Virus record (IMG/VR): IMGVR_UViG_2529292882_000018
Location: 1-34,246 of that record
Source of the DNA: a virus
Lineage: Duplodnaviria > Heunggongvirae > Uroviricota > Caudoviricetes
Reading direction: 5' to 3' (one strand)
DNA: 34,246 nt
The position numbers and the translations under genes were made by a program. The notes under the pieces were generated by a model. It was not told the origin of the DNA and searched no databases. It worked only from the letters and a program-made list of their open reading frames with translations. Numbering within the stretch: position 1 is the stretch's first letter; each line of letters begins with the position of its first letter. Positions 6,235 through 27,784 of this stretch are shown here, piece by piece.

Positions 6235-8139
6235 ATGAAACTGATTTCTAATAAGGCCAAATTAAAAAAGATTCTCAGAAATGCAGCCAAATATATTACG
6301 CCACCGCCTAAACTCCTTCCTTCGGAATGGTGCGAAGCGAATATGGTGCTGGTAGATGGTCCTCAAGCTGGGGATAAAGTTAAATTGCTGTCATTTCAGA
6401 AAGGCATGATTGATGCTCCTTTCCTTGAGAACAAGAAAAAGTATGTTCTGATGACCAGTGCGCAGATCGGAAAGACTACCATCTTGAACGGCATCCTGTT
6501 TAACCAGATGGCTAACGATCCATGCAATATGATTATCGGACAATCAACCGCTAAAGAAATGTCTCAATATCTCGCTGGTAAGATCCGACCGTCTATCGAA
6601 GCATGTGATGCATTAAAAGACGTGGTTACAGACAAGAATGATCGCAATGCGGTTAACAACAATAACCAGCTACAGCTAAAAACGAATCACTTCCTTTACA
6701 TGGTATCGCTTACCAGTCCATCAACCCTACGCGGTAAGACCGCAAAGGTTGGATTACTTGACGAAATCGATGCTGCTACAGCCTCAGAAGAAGGTGATCC
6801 GGTGGCACTGGCTGCTAACCGTTTAACTACCTTTGGCGATGAAGGTCGATTAGTCGTATCCAGTACCCCGACCAGTAAGCTGGGAAGCATTAACCAGCAA
6901 TGGTTATCAAGTGATATGCGTATGTTTTTTGTTCCGTGTCCTCATTGCGGGGAACACCAGGTGATCGAGTGGGAAAACGTTCAATTTGAATGGCGTAACA
7001 TCGATGGTAAGAACTTACCCGATCCTGATACCGCTCGTTATATTTGCCCCCACTGTAAGAACGCATGGACCGAAGGGGAACGAATCAGGGCAGTAGCGCA
7101 AGGCGAGTGGAGAGCAACCCGTGAAAGTGAAGTAGCAGGATTCTGGATTAGCCGTCTGTATTCACCTTTCAGTAGTATCCGCGCTTGTGTGGTTGATTTT
7201 AGTCATGCGTGGCAATCCTTTGATTTACAATCATTTTATAACACCGTGTTAGGTAAGGTATACGACGATCAGGACACGGCAGTAGAAGCAAATGAACTGG
7301 AACAACTCAAAACAGATGTTTCTATCGAGAATATCCCTGATGACGTGATTTTCTTATGTGCGGGTACTGACCAGCAATTAGATCGCGCAGAAACTACCAT
7401 CTTAGGTGTAGCGAAAGATAAGGTTTACATTCTGGATCACCGCAGCTTTTACGATCATAACTGTGAACGATATGAATCCCCTGTATGGGATAGATTAATC
7501 AACTTCCATAAAACCAAATTTACTACTGTATCGGGTGATCGTGTTCCTATGCTCGCCAGCTTCCTTGATACATCGAACGGTCGATTCACTCAAGCTGGAT
7601 ACCGTATTTGCGGCAAGTGGAAGAACTTACACGCTATCAAAGGTAGTTCTGCTGGTAACGCTCCGATCATTCCGGTTAAACCTACCCGCACAGGTGGTCA
7701 TGAATTGCTTATGTTGGGTGTTAACGTGGGTAAAACTGCATTTCGTGAAATGTTGGCTAGGAACCTGAAAGATAATCCTCATATTGCCTTAGAAATATCA
7801 GACACCGTTCCTGATGATTATCTCGATCAGCTTTTAAGTGAATCTGTTAAGCGTACTACTACTGGCGTGAGATGGGTAAAAAATCCAGGCGTTAGGAACG
7901 AGGCGCTCGACTGTGCCGTGTATGCTACAGCGGCTTCTCGCTACGTCCTTTCAAAAATGTCATGGGATAAACTCATCGCAATGAAAGACAGCTTAAACCG
8001 TGTTGTCGAAGAACCCGTAAAAGCTCCTAAATCGCAATCTAACGAGCAAACCGAAGAAACTAAGCCAATCACACGACCACAACGTAAAAACATCGCCAGA
8101 CGTCCAAATAGAGGCCGTAGTTGGGTAACATCGTTCTAA
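6235..8139 (+). CDS. terL: terminase large subunit, lambda GpA type
   Basis: 634-aa ORF; Walker A-like SAQIGKT; blocks [35 protein letters not shown] and [13 protein letters not shown] match lambda gpA blocks as I recall them. Confidence 0.9.
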
Positions 8140-8211
8140 TAACTCGCCGTCCTTCGGGGCGGCTTACTCCTAAATATTGTTAATCCAATAACAATTAAAT
8201 AAGGGGTAATT

Positions 8212-8709
8212 ATGAGTTTAGAACTAATTCCCTTAGTAATTCGTAAAGGCGAAAAAGTCACGCTTGCGAATGAAGAGGGTGTAACAATTCAGGTAGGAAA
8301 TAGTAATAAAGGTATCATTTATCAGGTTGATGATACTCCGGCTAATCATGAGATTAAAACCTTAGATTTTGCCGAAGGTAAATATACCATCGTAATAACT
8401 TTTGAAGAAGAACTGGTATCAATGCAGGAATTAACTGTTTTGCCAGTATTCGCCAAACAATCCAAAAAAGAATATCTGCGGGAAACTATCGCCATTTTGG
8501 AACAAGTCATCTTTTCTCGTTTATCTGGGGACGAAGCCGCATTATCTCAAATGACCGTGAAAGGGAATACTTTCGCCTATGAGTCATTGGGTGTTCTCCA
8601 GCAATTGAAGACTGATTATGAACGTCAGTTATCTAAATTAATTCAAGCCGAACGACGTAAACAGGGAATTAGCCCGATTAAAAATATCAAATTACGTCTT
8701 ACGCGATAA
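8212..8709 (+). CDS. hypothetical protein (head-assembly position)
   Basis: 165-aa ORF with AAGGGGTAAT RBS, between terminase and portal. Confidence 0.55.
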   Translation: MSLELIPLVIRKGEKVTLANEEGVTIQVGNSNKGIIYQVDDTPANHEIKTLDFAEGKYTIVITFEEELVSMQELTVLPVFAKQSKKEYLRETIAILEQVIFSRLSGDEAALSQMTVKGNTFAYESLGVLQQLKTDYERQLSKLIQAERRKQGISPIKNIKLRLTR

Positions 8710-8719
8710 GGGGTAAATC

Positions 8720-10231
8720 ATGTTTAATCTTTTTCGACGCAAAAAGGCGGTAGAAACTCCAGTTAAAACTAATCACCGCCAGCAACAACCAAAAATTTTC
8801 ATCGACAAACAAGTAGAAAAATTCCAGAAAGATTTGTCTAAGCGTTCTTTGGGCTTAGTTGGTGATCGCATTGATGGATCGCTTCAACAAGATACCATTA
8901 CAGGAACCTTCAATAAGGCTCTCAAATCGAACGGTAAGCGCCTTTATGATCAGGGTCGTACTCTGGCTATAAACAATGCTGTAGGTAAGCGATACAAGCA
9001 GTATATCGTTGACCAAGTTGTTGGCACGGGGCTTGATCCGAAGCCATCAATCGTTAAATCAAATGGCAAACTTGACACCGCACTGAATAAGCAAATCGAG
9101 AATGCTTTCTGGAAGTGGGCGCAGAGTGCTAAACGCTTCTCTCGCAACGGTCGCTTTAACTTCCGTGAAATGCTGGCAATGGCAGAATCTGAACGTGTTC
9201 AGGGTGGAGAATGTTTCATCGTTTTAACCAAAGAAAACAACGAGTTACAAGTTTCTATTCTGTCTGCTGATAGGTGTGACTGGTCGCTTAGTCGTGAAAT
9301 AAGCAAAGACCGCGCGATCTATCAAGGGATTGAGTATGACGTAGAAACAATGCGCCCTGTAGCATACTGGTTTAGAAAAATCAATCTACTGACTCAGACC
9401 TACACTGGCGAAAATTATCGCGTAGATGCTTCTCAGGTGTGCCACTACTACCAGCCACTGTGCGCGGAAAGTTTACGTGGCGTGACTGACTTCCTGCCAG
9501 TGATTAAGGATATCGCACATCAAGACGCATTCCGCGAAGCTGTACTGGTCATGAAACGAATTTCAGCTTGTAACATGGCGTTCATCGAGCGTCCGAAAGA
9601 TTCTGGTGACGATTTTGATACTGGTGAAGATGATGAACAGTATCAAGCGCCAGAAGTTATTCACGATTTCGCGCCAGGTACTATTCAGGAATTACCGGAA
9701 GGGGCAACGATTAAATCAATCCAATCTACTCAATCAGGCGATGATTTTAACAGCTTCAATGATGCGATGTTTACTAGCGTATCAATGGGATTGGGCGTGT
9801 TCAAACAGGGCTTGACTGGTGATACTTCCCAGATCAACTACTCAGCCGCACGTTTCGGTGAATTAACCCAGCGCACACGAGTTAAAGCACTGCAAAACAA
9901 ATTAATTGAAACAGTGGTATTGCCAATTTTCGAAGCATATCTACGCCATTATTCCGCGCGTGGTATTGTTCCGATTCGTATTACTGCAATTCCGCATATT
10001 ATCGATAATACAACTATTATCCGTCCGCGTTTTGAATCCGTCGATCCATTTAAAGACGTAAGCGCCGAGATTGCTTTAATTGATAACGGACTTAAATCAC
10101 GTACTGCCGTTATATTAGAACGTGGTGATGATCCTGAAAAAGTATTCTCAGAGATTCAAGCCGAAAAGAGCGCACTAAATATTATCGTTGATGGTGAGGG
10201 TGAAGAAAAAAATTCCCCAGCCGATCCCTAA
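8720..10231 (+). CDS. portal protein (by position and size)
   Basis: 503-aa ORF directly between large terminase and prohead protease/capsid; strong RBS. Confidence 0.75.
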   Translation: MFNLFRRKKAVETPVKTNHRQQQPKIFIDKQVEKFQKDLSKRSLGLVGDRIDGSLQQDTITGTFNKALKSNGKRLYDQGRTLAINNAVGKRYKQYIVDQVVGTGLDPKPSIVKSNGKLDTALNKQIENAFWKWAQSAKRFSRNGRFNFREMLAMAESERVQGGECFIVLTKENNELQVSILSADRCDWSLSREISKDRAIYQGIEYDVETMRPVAYWFRKINLLTQTYTGENYRVDASQVCHYYQPLCAESLRGVTDFLPVIKDIAHQDAFREAVLVMKRISACNMAFIERPKDSGDDFDTGEDDEQYQAPEVIHDFAPGTIQELPEGATIKSIQSTQSGDDFNSFNDAMFTSVSMGLGVFKQGLTGDTSQINYSAARFGELTQRTRVKALQNKLIETVVLPIFEAYLRHYSARGIVPIRITAIPHIIDNTTIIRPRFESVDPFKDVSAEIALIDNGLKSRTAVILERGDDPEKVFSEIQAEKSALNIIVDGEGEEKNSPADP

Positions 10232-10276
10232 TAACCAACGGGGGCGCAATGCCCCCAATTAATTAAAGGTGATTAA

Positions 10277-12277
10277 ATGCTTAAATTTCGCCGCGATCTT
10301 AACGGTTACGGTGGAGTTATTAACGAAGGGCATAACGATCAATACGAGTTTGAAATTGCTTTCTCCAGTGAACAGCCTTATCAGCGCCAATTCTGGGATG
10401 AGCAAAATCAAGAAATGGTGGTATTAGATGAAATTCTGGTACATACACCGGAAGCGGTTGATCTGTCTCGTCTGAATAATAACGCTCCGTTGCTGTTCAA
10501 TCATAATTTCGATAATCACATTGGTGTTGTTTGTAACGCTCGAATCGATGCGGATAACGTAGGTCGTGCTCTGGTTAAATTCTCTAAGCATGGGACTATG
10601 GCTAACGATATTCGTAATAAAGTCATTGAAGGTACGATGGAAAAAATTTCTGTCGGCTATGACATTAAAGAATATCACATCGATTATGCCAAAGGGCAAT
10701 TGATTGTTACTAAGTGGGCACCCTATGAACTCTCATTTGTCACCGTTCCTGCTGACGATACGGTTGGTTTAAATCGCTCTCTAAATACTATCACAGTTAA
10801 TTTGGAGGCTAAACGCGATATGACTAAAGAACAAATCGAAGAAATCAAAGAAGAACAAGAAGCCGCTCAGGTTGAAGAAACTCCGGTAGAAGAAAATAAA
10901 GAATCGGAAGTTGAAGAAACTCAAGAGCGCCAAGTTGAAGAGAATAAAGAAGATGAAAATCTCGAAGACGGAAAAGACGCTGAACATCCTGAAAGTGTTG
11001 ATGATGATAGTTCAACTGTTCGGGAAACAGAAGAAGTAAAAGAAGAACGTGAAGCCGCTCCGGTTGAAGAAGAAAAAACCGAAGAAGTGGCTGAACGTTC
11101 CGAAGAAGACGAAGAAGAAATTCGCGAAATTGCACGCGAACTAAATATTGATGACTCTGAATTAGCACGCGCATTGGCAATTAAAGACATGACGCCGGAA
11201 GCATTCCGCACTAAGGCACTAAATAATCTCGTCAATGCTCAACGTAATAACGAACAAATTAAGGACTCTAAAATGGAAAAAACTTTTGACCTGAACAACG
11301 TAATTCGCTCTCTGGTAGATGGTGCTGCTCTGGGTGCTAACGAAGCTGAATATTCCGCTATGGCTGCTGGTGCTGCAATGCAGCGTGGTCGTGCTGCTCG
11401 CGGTGGCTCTGTATTCGTTCCGGCTGCTGCTATGCGTGCTGCTTCTGCTGGTAACACCAAAGCCGACCTGACCGCTATCACTGACGAAAAACTGATGACT
11501 GAATCCTACATCGAAATGCTGATGCCGGAATCTGTTCTGGGTCGTCTGGGTGTGACTGTTTACAGTGGCTTGAACTCACCGACCGCTATTCCAAAAATGA
11601 CTAAATCCAGCGTTGACGCTTTCGGCTTCGTTGATGAAAACGGTGCTGCACCGGAAAGCAAAGCTGAATTTGCAAACGTGAAACTGTCTCCTAAGACTTT
11701 TGCTGGTGGCAACCCGATCAGCCGTCAGTCGCTGAAAACCGTTCCGGGCATCGCTACCCTGATCACTGATCACATTAACAAAGCTGTTCGCATCAAACTG
11801 GAACAACTGATTCTGTCTGATAAAGCTAACGACCGTGGTCCGGCTGGTCTGGTTAAGCAACTGGTAGACGCTAGCCGCGTTACCAAGAAAGCTGCTTTCT
11901 CTTATAAAGACTTCCTGAAAGAAATTGCAGCACTGACCGACGCTGGCGTTCCTGCTCAGGCGATCAAGTTTGCAATGAGCGGTGCAACTGCTGCTGAACT
12001 GGAATCTACCCTGAAAGATAACGGCGTTTCCGGTTATATCATCGAAAACGGCAAACTGGCTGGTTACGAAGTAGTTACTTCTGGCGTTATCCCGGCAGAC
12101 CACATCGTTCTGGGTGACTTCTCCGGTATTACTATCGGTGAGTGGGGAGGTCTGGAACTCGACATGGATCTAACTACATATAGGGATCGTGGTGCGGTAG
12201 TGCCTCGTATCTTTGTAGATTTGGACTACGTTGTAGCACAGCCGGAAGCTCTGAAAGTTCTTCACATCTCCGAATGA
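10277..12277 (+). CDS. prohead protease - acidic scaffold-like linker - major capsid protein fusion
   Basis: 666 aa; N-terminus has ELSFVTVPADD motif typical of HK97-type prohead proteases; middle is Glu-rich with repeated EAA(Q/P)VEE units; C-terminal ~330 aa is capsid-like with highly biased codons. Confidence 0.75.
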   Translation: MLKFRRDLNGYGGVINEGHNDQYEFEIAFSSEQPYQRQFWDEQNQEMVVLDEILVHTPEAVDLSRLNNNAPLLFNHNFDNHIGVVCNARIDADNVGRALVKFSKHGTMANDIRNKVIEGTMEKISVGYDIKEYHIDYAKGQLIVTKWAPYELSFVTVPADDTVGLNRSLNTITVNLEAKRDMTKEQIEEIKEEQEAAQVEETPVEENKESEVEETQERQVEENKEDENLEDGKDAEHPESVDDDSSTVRETEEVKEEREAAPVEEEKTEEVAERSEEDEEEIREIARELNIDDSELARALAIKDMTPEAFRTKALNNLVNAQRNNEQIKDSKMEKTFDLNNVIRSLVDGAALGANEAEYSAMAAGAAMQRGRAARGGSVFVPAAAMRAASAGNTKADLTAITDEKLMTESYIEMLMPESVLGRLGVTVYSGLNSPTAIPKMTKSSVDAFGFVDENGAAPESKAEFANVKLSPKTFAGGNPISRQSLKTVPGIATLITDHINKAVRIKLEQLILSDKANDRGPAGLVKQLVDASRVTKKAAFSYKDFLKEIAALTDAGVPAQAIKFAMSGATAAELESTLKDNGVSGYIIENGKLAGYEVVTSGVIPADHIVLGDFSGITIGEWGGLELDMDLTTYRDRGAVVPRIFVDLDYVVAQPEALKVLHISE

Positions 12278-12420
12278 ACTAGCGTAGAACCTTCTGAACC
12301 TTCCCCCGATTTGGGGGAAGAAAATCTGATTCCATCTCAGGAAGAAGAATCCCAGACGGTTACGGCGAAAGCCACAGCTAAAAAGGTGGGACGTCCACCG
12401 AAAGCAAAATAATAATAATT

Positions 12421-12448
12421 AGCCCTGCCTAACGGTGGGGCTTTTTTG
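12421..12448 (+). terminator. intrinsic terminator after capsid region
   Basis: AGCCCTGCC-TAAC-GGTGGGGCT hairpin followed by TTTTTT. Confidence 0.7.
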
Positions 12449-12477
12449 TATGTAAATACTCCATAAAGGGGGTAACT

Positions 12478-12768
12478 ATGTTCAAATTATCAGAATCACA
12501 ATTATCAAGAATGTTCCGAAGTGCTCCTGTATTTTCGGTGGAAGGTGGTAAATCAATTCGTGCTTATCATGAAATTACTACTACCGACGAACAAGGGGTA
12601 ATGACAGAGACAGAATTTCTATTTTGTCGTGAGGGAGACTTAAAGCAAGGTGATATTGTCATTGTAGAAAATCAGCGTTTCAAAGTTCAATACGTTAAGC
12701 GCAATGGTGACAATACCGCAGATTGCTTTATCACTCTGGCAGGGGGTACACATGCTCGCTACCGTTAA
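12478..12768 (+). CDS. hypothetical head-tail connector candidate
   Basis: 96-aa ORF with AAGGGGGTAA RBS immediately after capsid gene. Confidence 0.55.
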   Translation: MFKLSESQLSRMFRSAPVFSVEGGKSIRAYHEITTTDEQGVMTETEFLFCREGDLKQGDIVIVENQRFKVQYVKRNGDNTADCFITLAGGTHARYR

Positions 12769-13174
12769 TAATATGCCTAGACTGAAAATCAAACGCGCCT
12801 TGCAAGATATTATCGAACAAGATTTAGGTCTGGCTTTAAACGTAGAACAAACTCAGCAAGGCTTTAGTGATGACGTGGTTTGTTGGATCACCGGAATGAA
12901 TGAGACTTACACGCGTGTTCGTGGCGGTAATGCAATGCAAGCTGAATGTGTTATCGAAATGCAATTGTATTCTCAGATTCATGAAACCAAAATTCATGAG
13001 GGTATTTGCCAGATAATCCAGATTCAGCCGGATAACCCACGTTTTAAAGATTTGGGCTTCTCAATTTCAGATATCACTCCAGTAGCTTCTAATACCGATT
13101 ATGACGATGATTCTAGTGATGGTGGTATCGTTGGGACACTTAGCCTTAAATTTTCTTATGTAGCGCGTTTTTAA
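12752..13174 (+). CDS. hypothetical head-tail joining candidate
   Basis: Track ORF starts 12704; internal ATG at 12752 has a GGGGG RBS and overlaps the upstream stop by 17 nt. Confidence 0.5.
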   Translation: MLATVNNMPRLKIKRALQDIIEQDLGLALNVEQTQQGFSDDVVCWITGMNETYTRVRGGNAMQAECVIEMQLYSQIHETKIHEGICQIIQIQPDNPRFKDLGFSISDITPVASNTDYDDDSSDGGIVGTLSLKFSYVARF

Positions 13175-13183
13175 GGGGTAATA

Positions 13184-14017
13184 ATGAATATTACACAAGA
13201 TAACTTAGACATTTTCACGGGGTCGCATGTTGAAGTTTCCGTGTCTACTATGGTGGATAACCAGCCGGACTTTTTCGATCCTGCATTTAGTCCTATCGAG
13301 AACATCGCAGCATTCCCGACGATAACCGAATCTACAGAGATCCAGACGTTAGAAGAGTATGATCAGGACGCTACGGGGAAACTTGCTGGTTATCGTAAAC
13401 TTGAATCAACTACGTTAGTAGTAAACCGTGTTCTGGATGACGAACATCAAGACATGTTGATGAAAGCGGTAGAGGATAAAACACCTTTACGCTTCCGAAT
13501 GTTCTATGTTGTGAACTCTGGCTATAGTGCTGCTAACACTGGTTACTATGTCATCTATGATGCTTACGTCACATCACATAAAACCCGTGGTAGCGATAAC
13601 AAAGCGGTAACACTGGAATTTAAACTTGAACCAGATGGCGGGATTCTTGCAAGGGGTATCGCGACCGAAGGCCGGATCTTACGTCAAGGTGATTTTGGTT
13701 TGGGTGCTGGTGTACATCCATTCACAGGTCCGATTGATAGCGAAGCATTAGCCGGAAACCGTTTCGTAACTTATCAGGGATCGAGCGCATCTAATCCATT
13801 TAGTGCTGATACTTCACTAATTCACGTTCAACCTAATGAAGATGGTGGATGGCAATTAACTTGCACCGCTTCCGGCGCACCACGTTTACGAGTTCGCACA
13901 GTCCAGAAAGACGGTAATTCGGGATGGGTGAAAGTGTATTCCACAGAAGAAAAACCGACACCAGCCGAGATTGAAGCCGTTTCTATCCATGACCGGATCG
14001 ATTTCGGTGAGTTCTAG
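13184..14017 (+). CDS. putative virion structural protein
   Basis: 277-aa ORF with strong RBS; C-terminal EEKPTPAEIEAVS motif is shared with the side fibre (KPTPAEIGAYS). Confidence 0.55.
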   Translation: MNITQDNLDIFTGSHVEVSVSTMVDNQPDFFDPAFSPIENIAAFPTITESTEIQTLEEYDQDATGKLAGYRKLESTTLVVNRVLDDEHQDMLMKAVEDKTPLRFRMFYVVNSGYSAANTGYYVIYDAYVTSHKTRGSDNKAVTLEFKLEPDGGILARGIATEGRILRQGDFGLGAGVHPFTGPIDSEALAGNRFVTYQGSSASNPFSADTSLIHVQPNEDGGWQLTCTASGAPRLRVRTVQKDGNSGWVKVYSTEEKPTPAEIEAVSIHDRIDFGEF

Positions 14018-14044
14018 TATTCACTTCCTAAATAAAACATGACG

Positions 14045-14072
14045 CGGGGAGGTTAACGCCTCCCTTATTCCT
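14045..14072 (+). terminator. intrinsic terminator
   Basis: GGGAGG-TTAACG-CCTCCC hairpin followed by T-rich tract, upstream of fibre gene. Confidence 0.55.
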
Positions 14073-14092
14073 GTTTTATGTGAGGTGATTAG

Positions 14093-17000
14093 ATGCAATC
14101 AATCCAATTTAAACGAACTAATGTTTCTGGCAAAAAGCCAACGCCGGAACAATTACAGGTCGGTGAGGTGGCAATCAACCTTAAAGACCATGTTATTTTT
14201 ACCAAAGACCGAGATCATGAAGTAGTTCAAATCTCTGTTTCTCCTGAAACTCACGCGGCACTAGAATCTAAAGTTGATGCTAACAAACAAGAATTGGATA
14301 GCACAATTGCAGTAAATGACCGCAATATTCACGCTAAAGTAGATGAAATTAAACAAACTACTGATTCTACTATCGCAGCAAATCATGCAGAAATTAACAA
14401 TAAAGTTGATGTAATTAAACGCGAAACCGACGCGACAATCGAAGCTAATAAAAATAAAGCTGCTTCCGATCTTGCTGGTGTTAAAGCTGAATTGTCGGAT
14501 ACCATCAACGCTAATAAAAATGCGGCTGCTGTAGCAACTCAGGAACTGGACACCCGCATCAATAAAAAAGTTGATGATATTAAATCCCGTACAGATGCAA
14601 CCATCGCAAGCAATGACAAAGCAATCAATGACAAAGTTGATTTGATTAAGACAGAAACTGACCGCACTATCGCAGCAAATAAAGTCTATGCGGAAAATCA
14701 GTTAACTGACACCTACAATAACCTTACTGGTGTGATTGCAGCTAATAAGCAAGAGGCAGCGGATAACGTTGCGGCATTAACCCGTGATGTTGAAGCCAAA
14801 AATACAGCAATTCATAGCAAAGTTGACAATAACAAGTCTTACACTGATTCTGAACTGGCACGTTTAGAAAGCCGTATTGATGCAGCCGATGGATCTGCTG
14901 ATGGCAAGTACATCAAAAAACACGTAAACACTTATACTGATGGTTATTTGCTGTCTAAGACCGCAAACTATTTTGATGATCCAAATGCGCGTAATCTTGA
15001 TTACTTTGGTGCATTCCGCATGAATGACCTGGCGGGTCATATTGCAATGATCTTGCATGTTCCGCATCCATCTGGTGTTAATCATGCTCGTGGCTTTGAG
15101 TTCACTTATGGGTCTAATCCACATGCTACTGTAAGAACATACGGCTATGATGAATTAGGTAATTTGTCATATTCTCACCGCATGTATCATGAAGGTGATA
15201 AACCTACTCCGGCTGAAATTGGCGCATATTCGAAAGCAGAAATTGACCGGATGTTCCAGAAGACCATCAACTTTGGTGTAGAAACTGGATGGTTTAAAAT
15301 TGCTACCGCCTTTATTCCGCAAAATGACGGACGTAGCTTGAAAATTAGATTGATTGGTGGAAATGGGTGGAACGTAGGACAAACTGGACAATGTAATATT
15401 ATTGAACTTGTTATAAGGACTAGCAACGGTTCGCCTAAAGGAATTAACTTTGTTGCGTATCATCATGTTTCTGGTTACGAAAATCAATTTTGTGCCATTA
15501 ATACAGGTGATGACACTTATGATATCTATGCATATTACTTCGAATTTACTAATATGGTAATGGCTGAATATCAAGCGTCCAGCGATGTTAATTTAACTGT
15601 ACTTGATCGACCTGAATATGTAGGCGATAAACCTGTAGCTGACCATATCTATGATGCATATACAATACACTCCTTTAACAGTTTCAGTAACCGTGGAACG
15701 TTAAATTTTGCTGGAAACCATCAAGGCCAATATGACATTGAGCATATGAACGAACAACCGACAAATGCTAAAAAGATGTTGCGTCGGTTTAGAAGCTCTG
15801 CCCTCGCGACAATCTGGCATGAAACCGTTGATGATAACGCATATCGTCTTGCCACTGGCGGTACAGATTCAGGTCAACAATTATTGCTGACAACAACCGG
15901 GTTACATGTCAAGAGATTAACATTGGATGGCGGTGCTGCGGGTGGAAATGCTGGTATTGATATTCGTCGAGGACCAAACGAAGCAAGCCATTTTAATTTT
16001 ATGGATTATCGCACTGGTCAAGATGTTCGTAATGGCTGGTTTGGTTTTGGTGATTTGACGACCAAAGATTTTATTTGGTGTAACGATAACGGTCAAAACT
16101 CGATAAACTTGATTGAAAACGGTGAATTACATATTACTGGTGGTAAAGGCCAGAAAATTGTAATGAATAGCGAAGTCGCATTGTCTGAAAATGCTCGTTT
16201 GGCTGTTAAAGGTGGTAATTATGGCTTAATTTTTAGAAATGATGGTACTAGTTTCCATATACTGACTACCGATTTAAAAGATTCTTTTGGAAATTGGAAT
16301 AATCGTAGACCATTCAGCTATGATTTCGCCGAAGGTGGATTAGATCTAGGTGGCACAACGACCGAACGCTGTTTACATCTGGGAATTGATGGTAGTACCC
16401 GCATCGAGGAGAACTTAGTTTTCCGATCTGGGTCGCGTCAATCAATGGACTATATTGAAATGATCCATTGGGGTAACAGTAATATCGCTCGTGACAACGT
16501 TTTGAGTATGAAAGACTCAAAAGGATTCCTTGCTGAATTTGAACGAGTGGGTGGGACTAACGGCGTTAAAACCAGATTCTTTGGTGAAACATTCACTGAT
16601 GGTACATTATACCTAAATCAGATGAATAATAGCTCTGAACGATTCTCTATCAACAATTGGGGAAATTCAGAAGTTGGACGCGCGGCAGTAATGGAAATCG
16701 GCGATTCCAAAGGTTATCACTTCTATACGGAACGTAGAACAGATAACAGTTTGATGTTTGATGTTGCTGGCGCTTTTACTGTGCATGGACCTAGCGGGAT
16801 CACTATCAAAAACTCTGATGGTGCTCGTCACATCTGGTTTAGAGATAACAGCGATACAGAAAAGGCTGTTATCTGGGCTACAGATGAGGGTATTTTACAT
16901 ATTCGCAATAACCACGGTGGACAATTTAGTCATCACTTCCAGGGTGCAATGATTAAAGCGGGAGAGCGTGTTCCATATAATAGTGAATACGCTCTTATCC

Positions 17001-17602
17001 GTGGTGATATTTCCGGTGGTGCATGGGTAGACTGGCGAGCGCGTCCGGCTGGATTGTTGGTAGACTGTCAGGACTCACGAAATCAAGCATATAACATTTG
17101 GAAAGCTACTCATTGGGGCGAACAGCACCTTGCGGCGATGGGTGTTCATGCTGGCGGTGGTAATCCTCATGTTGTATTGCATGTGGGTGGGAATGATTAT
17201 GCATTTGCATTTAACGGTGATTTTACTGCTGGTGCTGCTGTATATTGTAACGACGTTTATATTCGTTCTGACCGTCGTCTGAAAATTAATGTTGAAGACT
17301 ACGAAGAGAATGCGGTGGATAAGGTAAATAAACTCAAAGTTAAAACCTATGATAAAGTTAAATCTCTTTCTGACCGCGAAGTTATCGGCCATGAGATTGG
17401 TATTATCGCACAGGATTTGCAAGAAGTATTACCGGAAGCTGTTAGCACTTCTAGTGTCGGATCTCAGGATAACCCAGAAGAAATTTTAACAATTTCAAAC
17501 TCCGCAGTGAACGCGCTTTTAATTAAAGCGGTCCAAGAAATGAGCGAAGAAAATAAAATCCTTCGTGAACGTCTTGCTGCAATTGAGGCTAAATTAGGGT
17601 AA
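14093..17602 (+). CDS. side tail fibre / tailspike-like protein with C-terminal intramolecular chaperone (S74-type) domain
   Basis: 1169 aa; N-terminal tandem ~21-aa KVD..IK..TD.TIAAN repeats; C-terminal SDRRLKINVED...IGIIAQDLQEV... matches the auto-cleaving chaperone domain known from T5 L-shaped fibre and K1F endosialidase. Confidence 0.8.
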   Translation: MQSIQFKRTNVSGKKPTPEQLQVGEVAINLKDHVIFTKDRDHEVVQISVSPETHAALESKVDANKQELDSTIAVNDRNIHAKVDEIKQTTDSTIAANHAEINNKVDVIKRETDATIEANKNKAASDLAGVKAELSDTINANKNAAAVATQELDTRINKKVDDIKSRTDATIASNDKAINDKVDLIKTETDRTIAANKVYAENQLTDTYNNLTGVIAANKQEAADNVAALTRDVEAKNTAIHSKVDNNKSYTDSELARLESRIDAADGSADGKYIKKHVNTYTDGYLLSKTANYFDDPNARNLDYFGAFRMNDLAGHIAMILHVPHPSGVNHARGFEFTYGSNPHATVRTYGYDELGNLSYSHRMYHEGDKPTPAEIGAYSKAEIDRMFQKTINFGVETGWFKIATAFIPQNDGRSLKIRLIGGNGWNVGQTGQCNIIELVIRTSNGSPKGINFVAYHHVSGYENQFCAINTGDDTYDIYAYYFEFTNMVMAEYQASSDVNLTVLDRPEYVGDKPVADHIYDAYTIHSFNSFSNRGTLNFAGNHQGQYDIEHMNEQPTNAKKMLRRFRSSALATIWHETVDDNAYRLATGGTDSGQQLLLTTTGLHVKRLTLDGGAAGGNAGIDIRRGPNEASHFNFMDYRTGQDVRNGWFGFGDLTTKDFIWCNDNGQNSINLIENGELHITGGKGQKIVMNSEVALSENARLAVKGGNYGLIFRNDGTSFHILTTDLKDSFGNWNNRRPFSYDFAEGGLDLGGTTTERCLHLGIDGSTRIEENLVFRSGSRQSMDYIEMIHWGNSNIARDNVLSMKDSKGFLAEFERVGGTNGVKTRFFGETFTDGTLYLNQMNNSSERFSINNWGNSEVGRAAVMEIGDSKGYHFYTERRTDNSLMFDVAGAFTVHGPSGITIKNSDGARHIWFRDNSDTEKAVIWATDEGILHIRNNHGGQFSHHFQGAMIKAGERVPYNSEYALIRGDISGGAWVDWRARPAGLLVDCQDSRNQAYNIWKATHWGEQHLAAMGVHAGGGNPHVVLHVGGNDYAFAFNGDFTAGAAVYCNDVYIRSDRRLKINVEDYEENAVDKVNKLKVKTYDKVKSLSDREVIGHEIGIIAQDLQEVLPEAVSTSSVGSQDNPEEILTISNSAVNALLIKAVQEMSEENKILRERLAAIEAKLG

Positions 17603-17641
17603 TTGGAAAGCGGGGCGAAAATCCCCGCTAAGGATTCTTAT

Positions 17642-17938
17642 ATGGGATATTGGGTAAGTAGTGAAATTAATACTAAAATCGATGCTTTAAAATGGCATGT
17701 ATTTGATATTCCTAACGGCTATGGTACTGCTCGTGCTGGTGTCGCTGTAATGCGTCATAATGCTGGTGGTGGGTGGTCTGATGCACATATTAACGTAGAT
17801 GGTTTGACCGTTGCTCGTCGTCGTGGTGGGACCAATTGGGGATCTACTATAAATTCGTTTGTTCCTGCTGGCTGCACCGTCTCCTTTGGTTTAGGGGGTG
17901 AAGGTGGTGTTGAATATTTTAAATTCATGGAGTTTTAA
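17642..17938 (+). CDS. small Gly-rich protein, paralog 1 of 3
   Basis: Track ORF starts at TTG 17603 inside a hairpin; ATG 17642 with AAGGA RBS gives MGYWV...FDIPNGYG. Confidence 0.55.
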   Translation: MGYWVSSEINTKIDALKWHVFDIPNGYGTARAGVAVMRHNAGGGWSDAHINVDGLTVARRRGGTNWGSTINSFVPAGCTVSFGLGGEGGVEYFKFMEF

Positions 17939-17940
17939 TT

Positions 17941-18246
17941 ATGGCTGGATGGATAAATCAAAGAATGTCAAACGCTATTAGTATTTGGGCTAATGGTGGA
18001 TATTTTGATATCCCCAACGGTTGGGTCACTGATTCATGCGGAATTGTCTTTGCTCATATGGAAGCCATTAACGGTGCTGGTGATCTTGATTCTGAATTGG
18101 CTGTAAATGGATTGATTGAATCAGGTCATCATGCTGGTGATGCTGGGAGTTGGGGCGCTAGTTCTTTAGTTGGCGCTGGTGCTACCGTTAGCTTTACATT
18201 GGGTAAAGGTAGTTTGCATTATTTCAAATTCAGGAGAATGCACTAA
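17941..18246 (+). CDS. small Gly-rich protein, paralog 2 of 3
   Basis: 101 aa, MAGWI...FDIPNGWV; DNA-level similarity to neighbours around the GATATTCCTAACGG block. Confidence 0.55.
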   Translation: MAGWINQRMSNAISIWANGGYFDIPNGWVTDSCGIVFAHMEAINGAGDLDSELAVNGLIESGHHAGDAGSWGASSLVGAGATVSFTLGKGSLHYFKFRRMH

Positions 18247-18548
18247 TGGCATTTTGGGTAGATGGCGCTTTGGGGAATAGGGCGGGTAAAGCAAATCAAG
18301 GATGGTTTGATATTCCTAACGGGTGGACAGCCGACGCTTTCGGGACTATTTCATTTTCCGCTCATTCTTCCGGTGGTGGCGGTGGTGACTCTGAATTGCT
18401 TATTCATGGTTTGTGTGTTTCTGGAAGTCATAAGGGTCATGATTGGGGACAGATTCATTCTTGTATTGCACCGCAAGGGGCGGTAATTACCGTTAGCACG
18501 AATAGAGGGATTGCTCATCTTCGTTATAGACGCTTGAGCAACCGCTAA
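18246..18548 (+). CDS. small Gly-rich protein, paralog 3 of 3
   Basis: 100 aa, MAFWV...FDIPNGWT; start overlaps previous stop (TAATG); AGGAG RBS. Confidence 0.55.
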   Translation: MAFWVDGALGNRAGKANQGWFDIPNGWTADAFGTISFSAHSSGGGGGDSELLIHGLCVSGSHKGHDWGQIHSCIAPQGAVITVSTNRGIAHLRYRRLSNR

Positions 18549-18602
18549 ATAAATAGAATTACGGGTATGTGCCCTATTGTTTAAAATAGAAGGAAAAGAA
18601 TA

Positions 18603-19073
18603 ATGACTACTAAATTTGATATTTTCTCTGGTGGCCTCGTTGGTCTGTTTCTGCAAGAAGACGTAAACAATAAAGACCTTGATGCTGAAACCTATCTGGA
18701 AATTCCAGAATGTGCGGCTTTCCCGGAAACTGGTGTAGAACGTTCTACGATCGATGTTCCAAACTTCTCTGGTGCTTATAACCGCAAGCTGGTTGGCCGT
18801 ATGTCTGTACCGGATATCGAACTTTCGATCAACTACATGCCGGGTAACGAAGTACACGAAAAACTGATTAAAGCAACCGAAGACGGTAAGCGCGTACAGC
18901 TTAAAATTGCTTACTACATCGATGCTACGAAAAAATCTGGTGTACATATCGCTTATAACGGCTTCCTGTCTAAAACTACCATGACTGGTGGTGAGGATGC
19001 TGTAGTAGGCCGTACCTTCACCTTTGTAGTAGATGGTGCTCCGGTTAAACAAGCTGTTTTCCAGACTCTCTAA
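18603..19073 (+). CDS. major tail tube protein, lambda gpV-like N-domain
   Basis: 156 aa; INYMPGNEVHEKLIKATEDGKRVQLKIAYY resembles the lambda gpV block LAWMPGEQ...EGDTRAYKIRF as recalled; canonical position before the G/T chaperone genes. Confidence 0.7.
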   Translation: MTTKFDIFSGGLVGLFLQEDVNNKDLDAETYLEIPECAAFPETGVERSTIDVPNFSGAYNRKLVGRMSVPDIELSINYMPGNEVHEKLIKATEDGKRVQLKIAYYIDATKKSGVHIAYNGFLSKTTMTGGEDAVVGRTFTFVVDGAPVKQAVFQTL

Positions 19074-23588: not shown

Positions 23589-24008
23589 ATGCTAAAAACT
23601 AGGCTTATCACCGATTATATCAATTCTTTAATAGGTCAGGAGTTCGTTCAAGGCGAGAATGATTGCAATCTCATTGCATGTAAGATCATCGATATTCTCG
23701 CTGGTACTGACCTATATAATTCTCTTTATAAAAAATATTCAACTAAAGAAGAAGGCTTGAAAATCTGCAAAGAATTAAGCGGGTATTCAAATATCCTTCA
23801 ACCAATTAAGAAACATTTCAAATTAGTCACTGATGACTTACAGGACGGCGACTTACTGGTCACAGCCCACAAATTAGGGAACCGCAAATATTATTCCGTA
23901 GTTCCTCATTATTCCGGTTATGGCCTCGTTGAAGAAGATGGTATCTGGATGACCATTCCTGTTTCAGACATTGACTATGAACAAGTTTATAGATTCGGGG
24001 GTGAATAA
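23589..24008 (+). CDS. tail assembly protein, gpK-like with Cys/His (NlpC/P60-like) residues
   Basis: Track ORF starts 23433 overlapping upstream gene; ATG 23589 with GGAGG RBS; GENDCNLIACKI Cys block and downstream His. Confidence 0.5.
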   Translation: MLKTRLITDYINSLIGQEFVQGENDCNLIACKIIDILAGTDLYNSLYKKYSTKEEGLKICKELSGYSNILQPIKKHFKLVTDDLQDGDLLVTAHKLGNRKYYSVVPHYSGYGLVEEDGIWMTIPVSDIDYEQVYRFGGE

Positions 24009-27000
24009 TGGGATTTGAAGTATTGGTAGGCGCGGTTATTGCTGGTGCGTCTGCTGGGATGGCGGCAGCCGCAACATTTTCTGTTATGACCGCAGTCGCT
24101 ATCGGTATGGCTGCTGGTGCAATGACCTTGATCGCTTCCACTGTAGGCGCACCAAAAACACCGAAAGTACAAAGCCCAGATAATGCGGTGACACTAGGAA
24201 CATCAAACGATCCTAAGACAGTATTACCCGTTCTTTTCGGTACTACCCGAACTGGTGCAATCTGCGTTTACAAAGCAATTTCACAGCGTGAAAATAACAA
24301 ACTGGTACAAATTTTTGCTATTGCCGAAGGTGAGATCGATCACTTTAAAGCACTGCACATCGATAATAAAAATGTTCTCATTAGTCAGAATATGACAATT
24401 CGTGATGGCATTCTCGATAAAGGAAACATTAAAGACGAATATCGCAAAGTGTTAGAAGTCGAGTTTCGCACGGGTAAAAATCCTAACACTGCATTAGATC
24501 TTGCTAAACATCATTTGGGCGCTGATTGGGATGATCGGTATCAGGGTAACGGCATTGCGACCATGTGTATTGTTTTACGTCGTGATGACAAATCTTTGGC
24601 TGCTGGTGTTGATATTCTCCAGCCTAATAGCCAGGTAGCGGTCGATGTTATGGGCTTAAAAATCCGTAACCTCGAAACCAATGCTATTGAGGCTAGCACT
24701 AACGGCGTGGACCAGATTTTCCACTACCTAACAAATGAAAAATATGGATTATCCGTACCGATTGAAAACATTAACGTTGATTCATTCCTGAAAGTACGTA
24801 AGCAAGTACGCCAGATGGATTTGCATTCAAACGGTGCATGTGATCCGAACGCCAGCTTTAAAGAGAACTTGACTAGCCTTATGCAGACTTTCGGCGGGGT
24901 AATGTTCGAATCCTTTGGACGTATTACTCTGAAACTGGATGCTCCTGATATTGTTAAGCATACCTTCAATGAAGACAATATCATGATGGGAAAAGTATCA
25001 CTGAAAACAGGTGGCACTAACGGTTATTTCAATACCATTAACGCGATGTATCAAGAACCATCAATTGACTATTCCGAGCAAATGCTACGTTATCCGGCTG
25101 ATGCTGAAAACGATGCTACTATTCGTCAAGATGGTCGAATTATCGCTAAAGATATTGAATATCGTTTTGTTAAGTCTAAAGCCCAGATTGATAAACTCGC
25201 GAGCATTGAGCGAAATAAATCTCGTATCACTCAGGTTATCAGCTTTATGACTACTGACGCATTCACTGCCGAAGTTTGGGACGTTATCAGCGTAACCTAT
25301 GATGAATTGAAACTGAATAATTCACTTTGGCGCATTACTGCAATTGATCGTTCTATTGATTCTGGTATTGCTGGGATGATGACTATCACCGCTACAGAAT
25401 ATAATTCTCAGGTTTATACTGACCTGAACTATGCGGCGACTCCAGACAATAGACCTACTGGTTTACCGGATTCAATGACAGTACAGAAACCGACTAATTT
25501 CAGAATTAAGGCAACTGGTGAGACAATCCACGGTAAAAACGTAACTTTGACATGGGACGCACCGGAAGATTTTAACCGCTACGGTTTCCAGATTGATTAT
25601 CGTGTGAGTGGATCACCTAACTGGATTAAGCTGGGACAGACTTCACAGCAAATTTTCAATATCAATGCACTGGCAAAAGATCGCTCCTACGATTACCGCG
25701 TTTGTGCTTTCGGTATTATTGCTCGTTCCGAATGGGTGGAACTGGTTAACCAGAATCCAGAAGTTACCTATGAACTGCCTACGCCAGTGATCCGCATCAA
25801 AAATCAGGGTAGCTCACCTGGTACTTTCGAAGGCAATGATCTGATTATCGAATGGGAAAATCAGCAAGCCTTAGATGTGGTTATCAACGGTGAAGCTAAC
25901 AAGTTTAGTGACCTGTTTGAAGCATACATTATCAAGGTAACTAACAAGGCTGGTAAGTCTATTCAGTACCGTACCCGCGATCCTGAATCATGGACCTATA
26001 CGCTTGATATGAACCAGTTTAACGGCCTTTCCCGTGAATTGACGGTAGAAGTATCAGTCAAGGGCTATAACAACTCAGAGAGCGCCCCAGCGCGTTTAGT
26101 GGCTATTAACCCACAGCATAAGCCAATGAAAGGTTTTAGTGCGCGTGGTGGCTTTAATACTGCGTTTGTTAGCTGGGCGGATGACGTAGAACATGACTAT
26201 GCAGGGTCAATCATCCAGTATGCAACCGATAACACTTTCTCAGATGCAAGGGCAGTAAGCACGAATAGTGTTAGCCATACTTCCTTTGATTTGGCTGACG
26301 GTGATTATTATATCCGTGGTGCTCACTATGATATTTTCGGTATGGATGATGCTGTTTGGTCTGAACCGTATTTCATGCAAATGAAATCTACCATTAGTTG
26401 GGACGATCAGGACAAAGAAGCACTGGAAGACCTGATTGGTTTACAAGACCGCTTAGATGAAACTATCGCGGATGCTATTGCTCAAGCTGGCGCTAATGCC
26501 GATGCTAAAATTGATGCAATGCATAAGCAAATCACTACCGAAACAGGGCAGACGGTCCAAGCCTCAGCCAATACCTTAAAGAGTCTGATTGCTACCAGCG
26601 AGCAAGCTAGCTCCACTAAGATTGATCAGGTTAAAGCTGAACTGAAAGGCGATATCACCAAAGAAGTTAGCGCATCCGCTACTACCCTGAAACAAGCAAT
26701 TGCTACCAGTGAGGCAGCAAGCGCAAGTAAGATTGATCAAGTTCGGGTAGAAATGGATGGCAAGATTGCTGGTGTGAATCAGGAAGCAGATGTAAAAATC
26801 GATGCTTTGAAGGGAACCATTAACAGCAAATATAATCTGGCAGTTAATGCAGATGGTCGCGTGGCTGGTATTCATATGAGCGCAACCAACGATCCGGCAG
26901 AACCGACGAGAATCATCTTTACGGCTGATAAAATCGCGGTAGCTCCACAAGACGGATCAGAAGTTTGTCCGTTTGGCATCGAAGATAACAAAGTTTATCT

Positions 27001-27784
27001 CGATAATGCGATGATTCGTAATGCTGCAATTGGCACAGCCCAGATTAGTGATGCTAGTATCACCACGGCTAAGATCGGCACAGCCCAGATTAACGGCGCT
27101 CACATCCAACACGCACAGATCGGAACAGGTCATATCATTGATGGCTCTATCGATAATGCTAAAATTGGTAACTATATCCAGTCTTATAACTGGAATGGTA
27201 ACGATGGATGGTATATCGGCAAAGATGGCACTTGTCATTTTAGACACGCTAATATTCGTGGTCATTTGGTGGCTGATTCCGGAGAAATGAACAACGTAAC
27301 GATTAATTCAAGTTGCCGCATTTTGGGTATGCTTGATGCTAATCAGGTGCGTGGTGACTTCGTGAAAGCTATTGGTCGTCGATTCCCACATTGGGACGAA
27401 AACCCATCATTGGGCTATCCCGGTTATCCGCAAGGTACAATCACTGTTCGAATTGAAGATGATCACCCGTTTGATCGTCAGATTATCGTTCCGGCTATTA
27501 GCTTTGGTGGTCTTAATGCGCGTGAAGGCTCGAATAACAATACTTACTATGATAACTGTCGCTTGATTGTTCGCAAGAACGGTGCTGAATTATATAACCG
27601 TGCATATGGTAGACAGACTGGATTGTATAGTGCTGTTATTGATATGCCAGCCGGACACGGACCAGTTACGCTAACTTTTGAAGTAAGTTCAAGCGCAATC
27701 AACAACTGGACTCCCAGCACATGGATCAGCGATCTTTCTGTAATTGTTACTAAGAAAGCCGCTACGGGTATTTCTGTTTCTTAA
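24008..27784 (+). CDS. central tail fibre / host specificity protein, lambda J-like
   Basis: 1258 aa; C-terminal blocks DDHPFDRQIIVP, DMPAGHGPVTLTF and TKKAATGISV resemble the lambda J C-terminus as recalled; hydrophobic Gly/Ala-rich N-terminal 45 aa. Confidence 0.85.
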   Translation: MGFEVLVGAVIAGASAGMAAAATFSVMTAVAIGMAAGAMTLIASTVGAPKTPKVQSPDNAVTLGTSNDPKTVLPVLFGTTRTGAICVYKAISQRENNKLVQIFAIAEGEIDHFKALHIDNKNVLISQNMTIRDGILDKGNIKDEYRKVLEVEFRTGKNPNTALDLAKHHLGADWDDRYQGNGIATMCIVLRRDDKSLAAGVDILQPNSQVAVDVMGLKIRNLETNAIEASTNGVDQIFHYLTNEKYGLSVPIENINVDSFLKVRKQVRQMDLHSNGACDPNASFKENLTSLMQTFGGVMFESFGRITLKLDAPDIVKHTFNEDNIMMGKVSLKTGGTNGYFNTINAMYQEPSIDYSEQMLRYPADAENDATIRQDGRIIAKDIEYRFVKSKAQIDKLASIERNKSRITQVISFMTTDAFTAEVWDVISVTYDELKLNNSLWRITAIDRSIDSGIAGMMTITATEYNSQVYTDLNYAATPDNRPTGLPDSMTVQKPTNFRIKATGETIHGKNVTLTWDAPEDFNRYGFQIDYRVSGSPNWIKLGQTSQQIFNINALAKDRSYDYRVCAFGIIARSEWVELVNQNPEVTYELPTPVIRIKNQGSSPGTFEGNDLIIEWENQQALDVVINGEANKFSDLFEAYIIKVTNKAGKSIQYRTRDPESWTYTLDMNQFNGLSRELTVEVSVKGYNNSESAPARLVAINPQHKPMKGFSARGGFNTAFVSWADDVEHDYAGSIIQYATDNTFSDARAVSTNSVSHTSFDLADGDYYIRGAHYDIFGMDDAVWSEPYFMQMKSTISWDDQDKEALEDLIGLQDRLDETIADAIAQAGANADAKIDAMHKQITTETGQTVQASANTLKSLIATSEQASSTKIDQVKAELKGDITKEVSASATTLKQAIATSEAASASKIDQVRVEMDGKIAGVNQEADVKIDALKGTINSKYNLAVNADGRVAGIHMSATNDPAEPTRIIFTADKIAVAPQDGSEVCPFGIEDNKVYLDNAMIRNAAIGTAQISDASITTAKIGTAQINGAHIQHAQIGTGHIIDGSIDNAKIGNYIQSYNWNGNDGWYIGKDGTCHFRHANIRGHLVADSGEMNNVTINSSCRILGMLDANQVRGDFVKAIGRRFPHWDENPSLGYPGYPQGTITVRIEDDHPFDRQIIVPAISFGGLNAREGSNNNTYYDNCRLIVRKNGAELYNRAYGRQTGLYSAVIDMPAGHGPVTLTFEVSSSAINNWTPSTWISDLSVIVTKKAATGISVS

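Follow-up and report, generated by a model that had tools for sequence, protein, structure and literature searches.

A mobile triplet of small paralogous genes after chaperone-ended tail-fibre genes of enterobacterial phages, and its possible role at the fibre tip

The fibre gene and the three genes that follow it

The window, by which we mean the whole stretch of DNA analysed (34,246 nucleotides, IMG/VR record IMGVR_UViG_2529292882_000018), is the prophage of a temperate siphovirus in E. coli. Its products include, for head and packaging, a large terminase, a portal and a protease-capsid fusion; for the tail, two tail-tube-like proteins, chaperones, a tape-measure protein and a J-like tip protein; and also an anti-repressor and a large serine recombinase. 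A search of 50,697 phage records gave no near match to its head-gene block (positions 6235-14100). The fibre region contains the following features.

14093..17602, plus strand: side tail-fibre gene, 1169 residues, with a gp37-like N-terminus, Gp34_trimer and a C-terminal chaperone of the self-cleaving kind
17045..17269, plus strand: 'type A base', the last domain of the mature fibre, residues about 985-1059
17270..17602, plus strand: intramolecular chaperone, residues 1060-1169, PF13884, with autoproteolytic release predicted
17609..17629, plus strand: hairpin AGCGGGG-CGAAAAT-CCCCGCT, intergenic, between the fibre stop codon and g1
17642..17938, plus strand: g1, 98 residues, paralogue type 1, Shine-Dalgarno (SD) sequence AAGGA
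17941..18246, plus strand: g2, 101 residues, paralogue type 2, SD sequence GGAG within the end of g1
18246..18548, plus strand: g3, 100 residues, paralogue type 3, SD sequence AGGAG within the end of g2

The fibre matches PHROG 1699 ('long tail fiber protein distal subunit') with an E value of 1e-133 and has Pfam matches to Gp34_trimer (E 2e-14) and, at residues 1059-1117, to Peptidase_S74 (PF13884, E 7e-15). The type A base carries '...NIWKATHWGEQHLAAMGVHAGG...AAVYCNDVYIRS' and ends at Ser1059, where cleavage is predicted from membership of the S74 family. The cleavage motif, S1059-D-R-R-L-K, was found by pattern and is present in the window fibre and in all 15 fibres compared. The closest solved structure by sequence is the S16 gp37 fragment in the crystal structure of the gp37-gp38 tip complex (PDB 6F45), and the match extends from the last domain across the cleavage site and chaperone; the type A base aligns with the S16 gp37 fragment at E 2e-10 and the chaperone region is homologous to the S16 gp37 C-terminus.

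Directly 3' of the 1169-residue fibre gene are three successive same-strand reading frames of about 100 residues each, as an earlier reading made from the sequence alone (the sequence-only reading) had reported. That reading began g1 at 17603, which is a TTG abutting the fibre stop codon. The real start is almost certainly ATG 17642, which has AAGGA seven bases upstream and agrees with the GenBank and RefSeq calls for g1 orthologues. The reported 1-nt overlap of g2 and g3 (TAATG) was correct, but the reported 3-nt gap between g1 and g2 is actually 2 nt. The individual SD sequences, the 2-nt gap and the 1-nt overlap suggest that g1, g2 and g3 would be synthesized in equimolar amounts. No promoter-like site was seen 5' of g1, and the three genes lie within a late structural operon with terminator-like sites at 14046 and 19082 on either side.

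The intergenic hairpin folds as RNA at -14.6 kcal/mol with a z of only -1.1 versus shuffled sequences. A role of the hairpin as a terminator was not supported, as it lacks a T-tail, has this modest z and was missed by the terminator scan; without a T-tail it could at most serve for weak attenuation or RNA stability. Note that the hairpin is kept, with a G-U change, in phage KFS-EC and that the matching site in phage G2248 is annotated as a terminator.

The g1, g2 and g3 proteins can be aligned end to end. The pattern M-x-x-W ... [VYW]FDIPNG[YW] noticed in them is real, with W4 and F21-G26 (FDIPNG) identical in all three proteins and several glycines also invariant. A basic aromatic C-terminus had been ascribed to all three. 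This is true of g2 (FKFRRMH) and g3 (LRYRRLSNR) but not of g1, which has the acidic end FKFMEF. Conserved features are thus type-specific: an RRR cluster plus the acidic FMEF end in g1, and SGHH plus a basic RR end in g2 and g3. The paralogy is far above chance, with BLASTP E values of about 1e-6 to 1e-10 for g1-g2 and g2-g3 when computed at a nominal database of 1e8 residues. In contrast, the DNA-level sign of tandem duplication that had been claimed did not hold: similarity is weak (48-54% identity among the three genes) and the longest DNA word common to the paralogues is the 17-mer encoding FDIPNG. Such weak similarity gives no indication of a recent tandem duplication, and a recent event was rejected on the identities together with a distance tree. 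Across loci the paralogues are 16-41% identical and the orthologues 23-96%. In the tree the g1 orthologues form a single clade over all loci, g2 and g3 form distinct clades among the enterobacterial loci, and no recent internal duplication is seen at any locus. By these comparisons the triplication is ancient and g1-g3 are old paralogues.

The three genes are genuine coding genes under purifying selection. Overall dN/dS was 0.04-0.40 in the 32 of 33 gene comparisons (11 locus pairs) for which it could be calculated, the ranges being 0.04-0.36 for g1 and 0.08-0.35 for g3, and the whole-gene values give no hint of positive selection. The glycine-rich variable loops of the sequence-only reading are variable only to a moderate degree, with purifying selection throughout; hypervariable adhesin loops were not supported, variation among the E. 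coli alleles being diffuse and moderate. Among these alleles the variation of g1 is somewhat concentrated in the loops between strands, whereas g3, the most conserved of the three paralogues, is nearly invariant. The Salmonella g2 orthologues have an N-terminal extension of 15-30 residues. The g1-g3 sequences show neither a signal peptide nor a membrane segment.

Distribution of the triplet and its transfer with the distal fibre

The sequence-only reading did not recognize the family, and neither did profile searches in four domain libraries: scans of g1-g3 against Pfam, PHROGs, NCBIfam and PADLOC gave no usable match. Two candidates, a PHROG 'tail protein' (E 0.008) and a CAF17 barrel (E 0.05), were set aside as both fall below any threshold. 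No description of the triplet emerged from literature searches. Among 5.8 billion proteins, a profile search gave only 35 clusters, exclusively from Escherichia, Shigella or Salmonella; among 1.84 billion representatives, searched exhaustively by profile, about 15 clusters (at 50% identity) were true members. The latter search also matched four giant proteins (ankyrin, NHL, DUF4347 and Big-domain). Three of them had 4-19 matched stretches, and Pfam shows the four to be repeat-bias false positives rather than fused triplet domains. A scan of contigs from species-representative genomes gave no confirmed triplet locus.

The region of fibre, triplet and tube genes is present in 27 of 5,426 complete E. 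coli genomes, each time annotated as 'hypothetical protein (x3)'. In the phage collection tblastn found the triplet in the Krischvirus phages G37-3, G2248 and UPWr_E1 (3 of the 50,697 records) plus a degraded copy in KFS-EC, a single phage that has two records there. The 17 intact loci from enterobacteria are the window, the three Krischvirus phages, 11 further E. coli prophage or IMG/VR loci and two Salmonella prophages; all have the order g1-g2-g3, directly after a fibre gene with an S74 chaperone, and the Salmonella triplets are at 50-65% identity. Three distant metagenomic lineages, represented by six contigs, have the same order after an S74 fibre gene. The copy number is exactly three at every intact locus, and the fibres 5' of the triplet end in the motif S-D-x-x-[LIV]-K plus the chaperone domain. 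Three morphotypes carry the triplet: siphovirus prophages, the T4-like Krischvirus and a T7-like podovirus contig, which represents one of the distant metagenomic lineages and in which the layout is Phage_T7_tail plus S74 fibre, triplet, holin, small terminase and large terminase.

Comparison of the window with Krischvirus G37-3 delimits one further feature.

14945..18564, plus strand: mobile fibre-tip module common to Krischvirus G37-3, consisting of the distal fibre plus g1-g3

Over residues 285-1169 of the window fibre the G37-3 gp37 has 88% identity to it, protein homology starting at residue 285, and megablast gives 97.5% identity over 17400-18564, stopping 16 nt past g3. The G37-3 genes 3' of the triplet are an ordinary Krischvirus Dc5-like gene and then a holin. 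Distal fibre and triplet moved as one block between the prophage and Krischvirus, and horizontal transfer of the two together among siphovirus prophages, T4-like myoviruses and T7-like podoviruses is shown by these loci. The last domain of the fibre is of another kind ('type B') in G2248, UPWr_E1 and the prophage L017, the triplets of which are 75-90% identical to that of the window, and at locus L015 this allele of the triplet occurs with a type-A-like base. The pairing of triplet alleles with fibre-base types is not strict.

The fibre association that had been suggested from gene position is borne out, both by the location of the triplet directly 3' of a Peptidase_S74-type fibre at every locus on siphovirus, myovirus and podovirus backbones and by the co-transfer. 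As the association with S74 ends spans three unrelated backbones, down to about 25-40% identity, it argues for a functional link to the fibre, and we regard the link of the triplet to the fibre module as well supported. The further suggestion that the proteins are adhesin tips has indirect support, from the gene slot that the triplet shares with gp38, from the homology of the fibre end to S16 gp37 and from the TNF/C1q-like head that is modelled, all of which are given below.

In KFS-EC, a viable phage that was isolated on O157:H7 and grown on it, the cassette has been wrecked by a g1::g3 deletion plus a frameshift; g2 was lost when the GG(E/G)GG-coding stretches in g1 and g3 recombined. KFS-EC has a last fibre domain of 'type C', which in phage fFiEco06 is paired with gp38. 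The cassette may have decayed after a swap of the tip, or the record may hold an error.

A possible three-subunit cap in the place of gp38

In most T-even-like phages gp37 carries a self-cleaving C-terminal chaperone and, once this is removed, one gp38 monomer attaches (PMC9569957). In this docking three conserved Trp residues on three helices of gp38 fill three symmetry-equivalent pockets (PMC6851490). Homologues of gp38 lie 3' of gp37 in 926 phage records, fFiEco06 being an example with a full-length gp38. Identity between the RB33 gp37 and the window fibre is 79% over residues 708-1158, and the two are near-identical from about residue 826 to 1158; the last 158 nt of this RB33-type fibre end are common to about 30 Tequatrovirus records. 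In RB33 the place of the triplet after gp37 is taken by a gene for a gp38 N-domain, the product of which matches the attachment domain 6F45_D. Since gp38 in RB33 and the triplet in the window follow near-identical fibre ends, the same kind of fibre base pairs with either partner. Moreover, as RB33-type phages have this end without the triplet, the triplet is not needed for folding of that fibre, and it is accessory to fibre folding given that the RB33-type type A fibre folds and functions in its absence.

A tblastn search of the entire 167,832-nt G37-3 genome with the RB33 and fFiEco06 gp38 sequences (E<=1) gave no gp38 homologue, and the genome contains no reading frame of at least 120 residues with more than 13% Gly. 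Beside gp37 the RB49 reference record shows no gp38 and no triplet, and no gp38 was found in its 50-164 kb region. The positive control for the Krischvirus gp38 search therefore rests on a published study in which the fFiEco06 gp38 and the Bp7 genome are references for finding gp38 in phages including Krischvirus (PMC12032242).

Each of g1-g3 has one N-terminal helix carrying Trp4 in a gp38-like motif, W-[IVM]-[SGND]-x. The local sequences are WVSS, WINQ and WVDG in the window and WISE and WLSE in the Salmonella g2 proteins, and the gp38 sites W9, W22 and W37 read WIGS, WMSQ and WMSQ. Note that the pattern was set after seeing the data and that about 2.4% of background Trp residues fit it, so that the likeness is a lead only. 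Trp4 is near-invariant; some distant members have Leu, Tyr or Gln instead.

AlphaFold2 models of g1 (pLDDT 83.0) and g2 (pLDDT 84.7) show a short N-terminal helix followed by a well-predicted sandwich of seven strands, with a short two-residue bridge in addition. The helices have low pLDDT (53-64), as expected of a segment that orders upon binding. Foldseek matched the g1 model to TNF-alpha, C1QL2, the C1q head, TWEAK, FasL and cerebellins in the PDB (E about 3e-3, TM about 0.5) and the g2 model to C1q-domain, collagen-repeat and tail-fibre proteins in BFVD, a library of viral models (E 1e-4 to 1e-3). TNF/C1q heads and viral C1q-like or fibre-tip domains rank first for the two models in three libraries, the jelly-roll beta-sandwich matching TNF/C1q heads at modest scores. 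These models support the view that g1 and g2 would be compact TNF/C1q-like jelly rolls. No C1q or TNF Pfam signal was found in g1-g3, and PDB sequence matches to them were none better than E 0.02, those listed being unrelated. Given the modest scores and the lack of a sequence-level link, the likeness is to be read as 'works like' rather than as membership. Proteins of the TNF/C1q fold are obligate trimers; in C1q the three chains are paralogues, encoded by adjacent genes, that form a heterotrimer.

Our preferred reading, held tentatively, is that g1-g3 form a 1:1:1 pseudo-threefold cap that replaces gp38 at the fibre tip. The fibre would trimerize by means of its own C-terminal chaperone, which would then cleave itself at Ser1059 and expose a three-fold symmetric base homologous to the gp37 base of S16 and T2; for the window fibre, we propose the type A base as the docking surface. 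The products of the translationally coupled genes, made in equal amounts, would assemble 1:1:1 as a pseudo-threefold head, each N-terminal Trp helix occupying one of the three equivalent pockets that are used by the three Trp helices of monomeric gp38. The cap would be the outermost surface of the fibre and would contribute to receptor recognition and host range in the place of gp38. Taken with the three Trp4 helices, the fixed copy number and order, the translational coupling and the trimeric TNF/C1q folds, a 1:1:1 cap is the most economical reading, and the type-specific conserved residues (RRR and FMEF in g1, SGHH and RR in g2 and g3) fit subunits that are not interchangeable. More doubtful, but possible, is that the triplet is an undescribed class of adhesin, a heterotrimer of three separate TNF/C1q-like subunits seated on the self-cleaved gp37-type base that monomeric gp38 uses, with one Trp helix per pocket and portable among enterobacterial myoviruses, siphoviruses and podoviruses.

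Several observations argue against the cap, or against its being an adhesin. The diffuse, moderate variability of the triplet and its dN/dS values below 0.4 are unlike the hypervariable segments of gp38. KFS-EC is viable with a destroyed cassette, RB33-type phages do without the triplet on a near-identical fibre end, and the RB49 record has no gp38 or triplet beside gp37. Finally, Trp4 is replaced in some distant members and the alleles are not tied to one base type. The triplet may be a cap that is structural or protective and not the receptor-binding surface.

It is unlikely, although it is the rival that fares best, that g1-g3 are non-structural factors for fibre-tip assembly or maturation, or a transient protective cap that is shed by the time of infection or during it, rather than adhesins. 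The fibre already has its own intramolecular chaperone and the near-identical RB33-type fibre end matures without the triplet, yet the site 3' of a fibre gene is the classic place of a fibre chaperone and the T4 gp38 shares its gene slot with the T2 adhesin (PMC6851490). Alteromonas 'transient chaperone caps' are likewise known (PMC10579305; PMC9608196). The high conservation and moderate variability of the triplet fit a housekeeping role, and the cassette is dispensable in KFS-EC. On the other hand, no fold or sequence match of g1-g3 to Tfa, T4 gp38, Caudo_TAP or other chaperone families was found in Pfam, PHROGs, NCBIfam or the top structural matches, and the modelled fold seems nearer to terminal head domains than to known fibre chaperones.

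A smaller chance attaches to the alternative in which each paralogue forms its own homotrimer or monomer, giving up to three alternative tips and thus a bet-hedging, broad host range. Homotrimers are common among TNF/C1q-like domains and the paralogues differ most in loop regions, but gain and loss of copies would then be expected, whereas the copy number is never one, two or four and the order is constant over deep divergence. The type-specific conserved features suggest complementary subunits that do not replace one another, and translational coupling implies fixed ratios. It is highly improbable that the triplet is hitch-hiking cargo unrelated to the fibre, with a role for example in superinfection exclusion, anti-defence or lysis and a link that is only genetic: although it lies between fibre and holin genes in Krischvirus and the T7-like contig, morons are frequent in variable regions beside fibre genes and the KFS-EC cassette is dispensable, the proteins have no visible signal peptide or membrane segment and no PADLOC match, the genes lie inside the late structural operon with no promoter-like site 5' of g1, and the S74-end association is kept over three unrelated backbones to about 25-40% identity.

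On present evidence the triplet is best filed as an accessory protein set that is encoded after the fibre gene and would act at the fibre tip. In T-even-like and many other coliphages the fibre tip is used to read off host range, and tools for receptor prediction, which seek gp38 or the fibre's own tip, would mis-assign the receptor-binding protein in triplet phages. If the preferred heterotrimeric cap is correct, it would be a new and second independent way to put an asymmetric receptor-binding surface on a three-fold fibre, a prokaryotic-virus parallel to the three-chain C1q head and a compact swappable cassette for host-range engineering across morphotypes. If the proteins are assembly factors instead, they would be a new helper family for fibres with an in-built chaperone.

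Comparison with known fibre-tip proteins

One comparison is with gp38 of T2 and S16 (Pfam GP38). Like the triplet, gp38 is encoded directly after a distal fibre gene with a self-cleaving C-terminal chaperone, has a conserved N-terminal part with Trp residues on helices and is horizontally exchanged, and the S16 fibre end that it caps is homologous to that of the triplet fibres. The two have no sequence homology, g1-g3 being without a Pfam match at E<=0.1. The triplet is three proteins of about 100 residues rather than one of about 260, is modelled as a jelly roll rather than the beta-helix and polyglycine-II sandwich of gp38, contains 16-17% Gly versus 27%, lacks hypervariable segments and, unlike gp38, is found also in siphoviruses and podoviruses.

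The separate fibre chaperones and caps (Mu and P2 Tfa, T4 gp38, Pam3 gp25 and the chaperones of Alteromonas V22 and A5) are also products of a small gene directly 3' of the fibre gene and are common to morphologically distinct phages (PMC10579305; PMC9608196). They bind the distal end of the fibre, as is proposed for the triplet. Unlike the triplet, they are encoded by single genes and form homotrimers with helical or Tfa-like folds, and the triplet fibres already have a chaperone built in.

The arrangement of C1q (C1qA, C1qB and C1qC) resembles that of the triplet in having three paralogous chains encoded by three adjacent genes and a head at the tip of its trimeric stalk, the position likewise proposed for the triplet. 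Among BFVD entries, the g2 model is matched best by viral C1q-like and collagen-repeat fibre heads. The triplet sandwich has about 80 residues and 7-8 strands versus about 130 residues and 10 strands in C1q, and is encoded apart from its stalk, whereas the C1q head is fused to it. The likeness is one of modelled fold and gene arrangement, and both the heterotrimer and a common ancestry with C1q are putative.

Setting of the side-fibre gene within the prophage

The side-fibre gene and the three small paralogous genes directly downstream of it (the triplet: g1, g2 and g3) are bracketed by two genes, both of which match tail-tube profiles.

Other genes of the prophage in the window:
10277-12277, plus strand: fusion of a protease with the major-capsid protein, 666 aa
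13184-14017: 277-aa protein, the N-terminal 150 aa of which match PHROG 158, a tail-tube profile
18603-19073: tube protein, 156 aa, matching a tail-tube profile
24008-27784: J-like tip gene
31272-32951, minus strand: large serine recombinase, 558 aa

A location between two tube-like genes and distant from the J-like tip gene is an unusual site for a side-fibre gene. The 277-aa protein might be the anchor of the fibre. For its recombinase the prophage relies on an enzyme of the large serine type, not on a tyrosine integrase.

Similar segments with the pattern VD.IK..TD.TI.AN succeed one another in the N-terminal shaft of the fibre (window 14250-14850, about fibre aa 55-250), a run that gives rise to a weak match to the Pfam Apolipoprotein-repeat. 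This run is missing from the gp37 versions (distal fibre subunits) of the T4-like Krischvirus phages, in which homology to the window fibre begins at aa 285.

The triplet in other prophages and metagenomic records

Related E. coli prophages are broken up by insertion sequences (L015 6493-7701; L016 1761-2729), with ISVsa5 located in the tail-chaperone region of the strain KSC64 prophage and IS903B within the fibre gene of that of isolate 23. Both prophages are probably defective and in both the triplet is intact. In an IMG/VR copy (L013 5001-5306) the sequence is 1 nt longer than in its relatives, g3 is displaced by one base and the g2 match covers just 72 aa, likely owing to a frameshift or sequencing error within g2. 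In one metagenomic lineage (L019 1375-4083; L020 2497-3177) another large protein, of 902 aa and with Ala-rich repeats near its N-terminal third, comes after the triplet. This protein, for which no Pfam match is on record, may be a second fibre.

Possible cassette decay and gp38 in T4-like phages

In the viable phage KFS-EC (L002, MH560358, 4242-4700) the cassette has been cut down to a g1(1-89)::g3 fusion by recombination between Gly-codon repeats, and an extra G frameshifts the fusion. The last fibre domain of this phage is of the fFiEco06-like class (type C). Either the cassette decayed once the tip had been swapped, or the sequencing is in error.

RB49 has been reported to have an S16-like gp38 (the adhesin that docks on the gp37 tip), with host-range mutations at residues 230-231 (PMC9569957). 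In the RB49 reference record (NC_005066; L030, L032, L033) gp37 is directly followed by Dc5 and holin, and no gp38 homologue was found within 50-164 kb, which is at odds with that account. The RB33 gp38 (L004, KM607001, 3754-4194) is only 146 aa in length and has the attachment domain, but not the glycine-rich receptor domain found in the 266-aa gp38 of fFiEco06. Its matches in related phages are split into two parts, suggestive of a frameshift or truncation.
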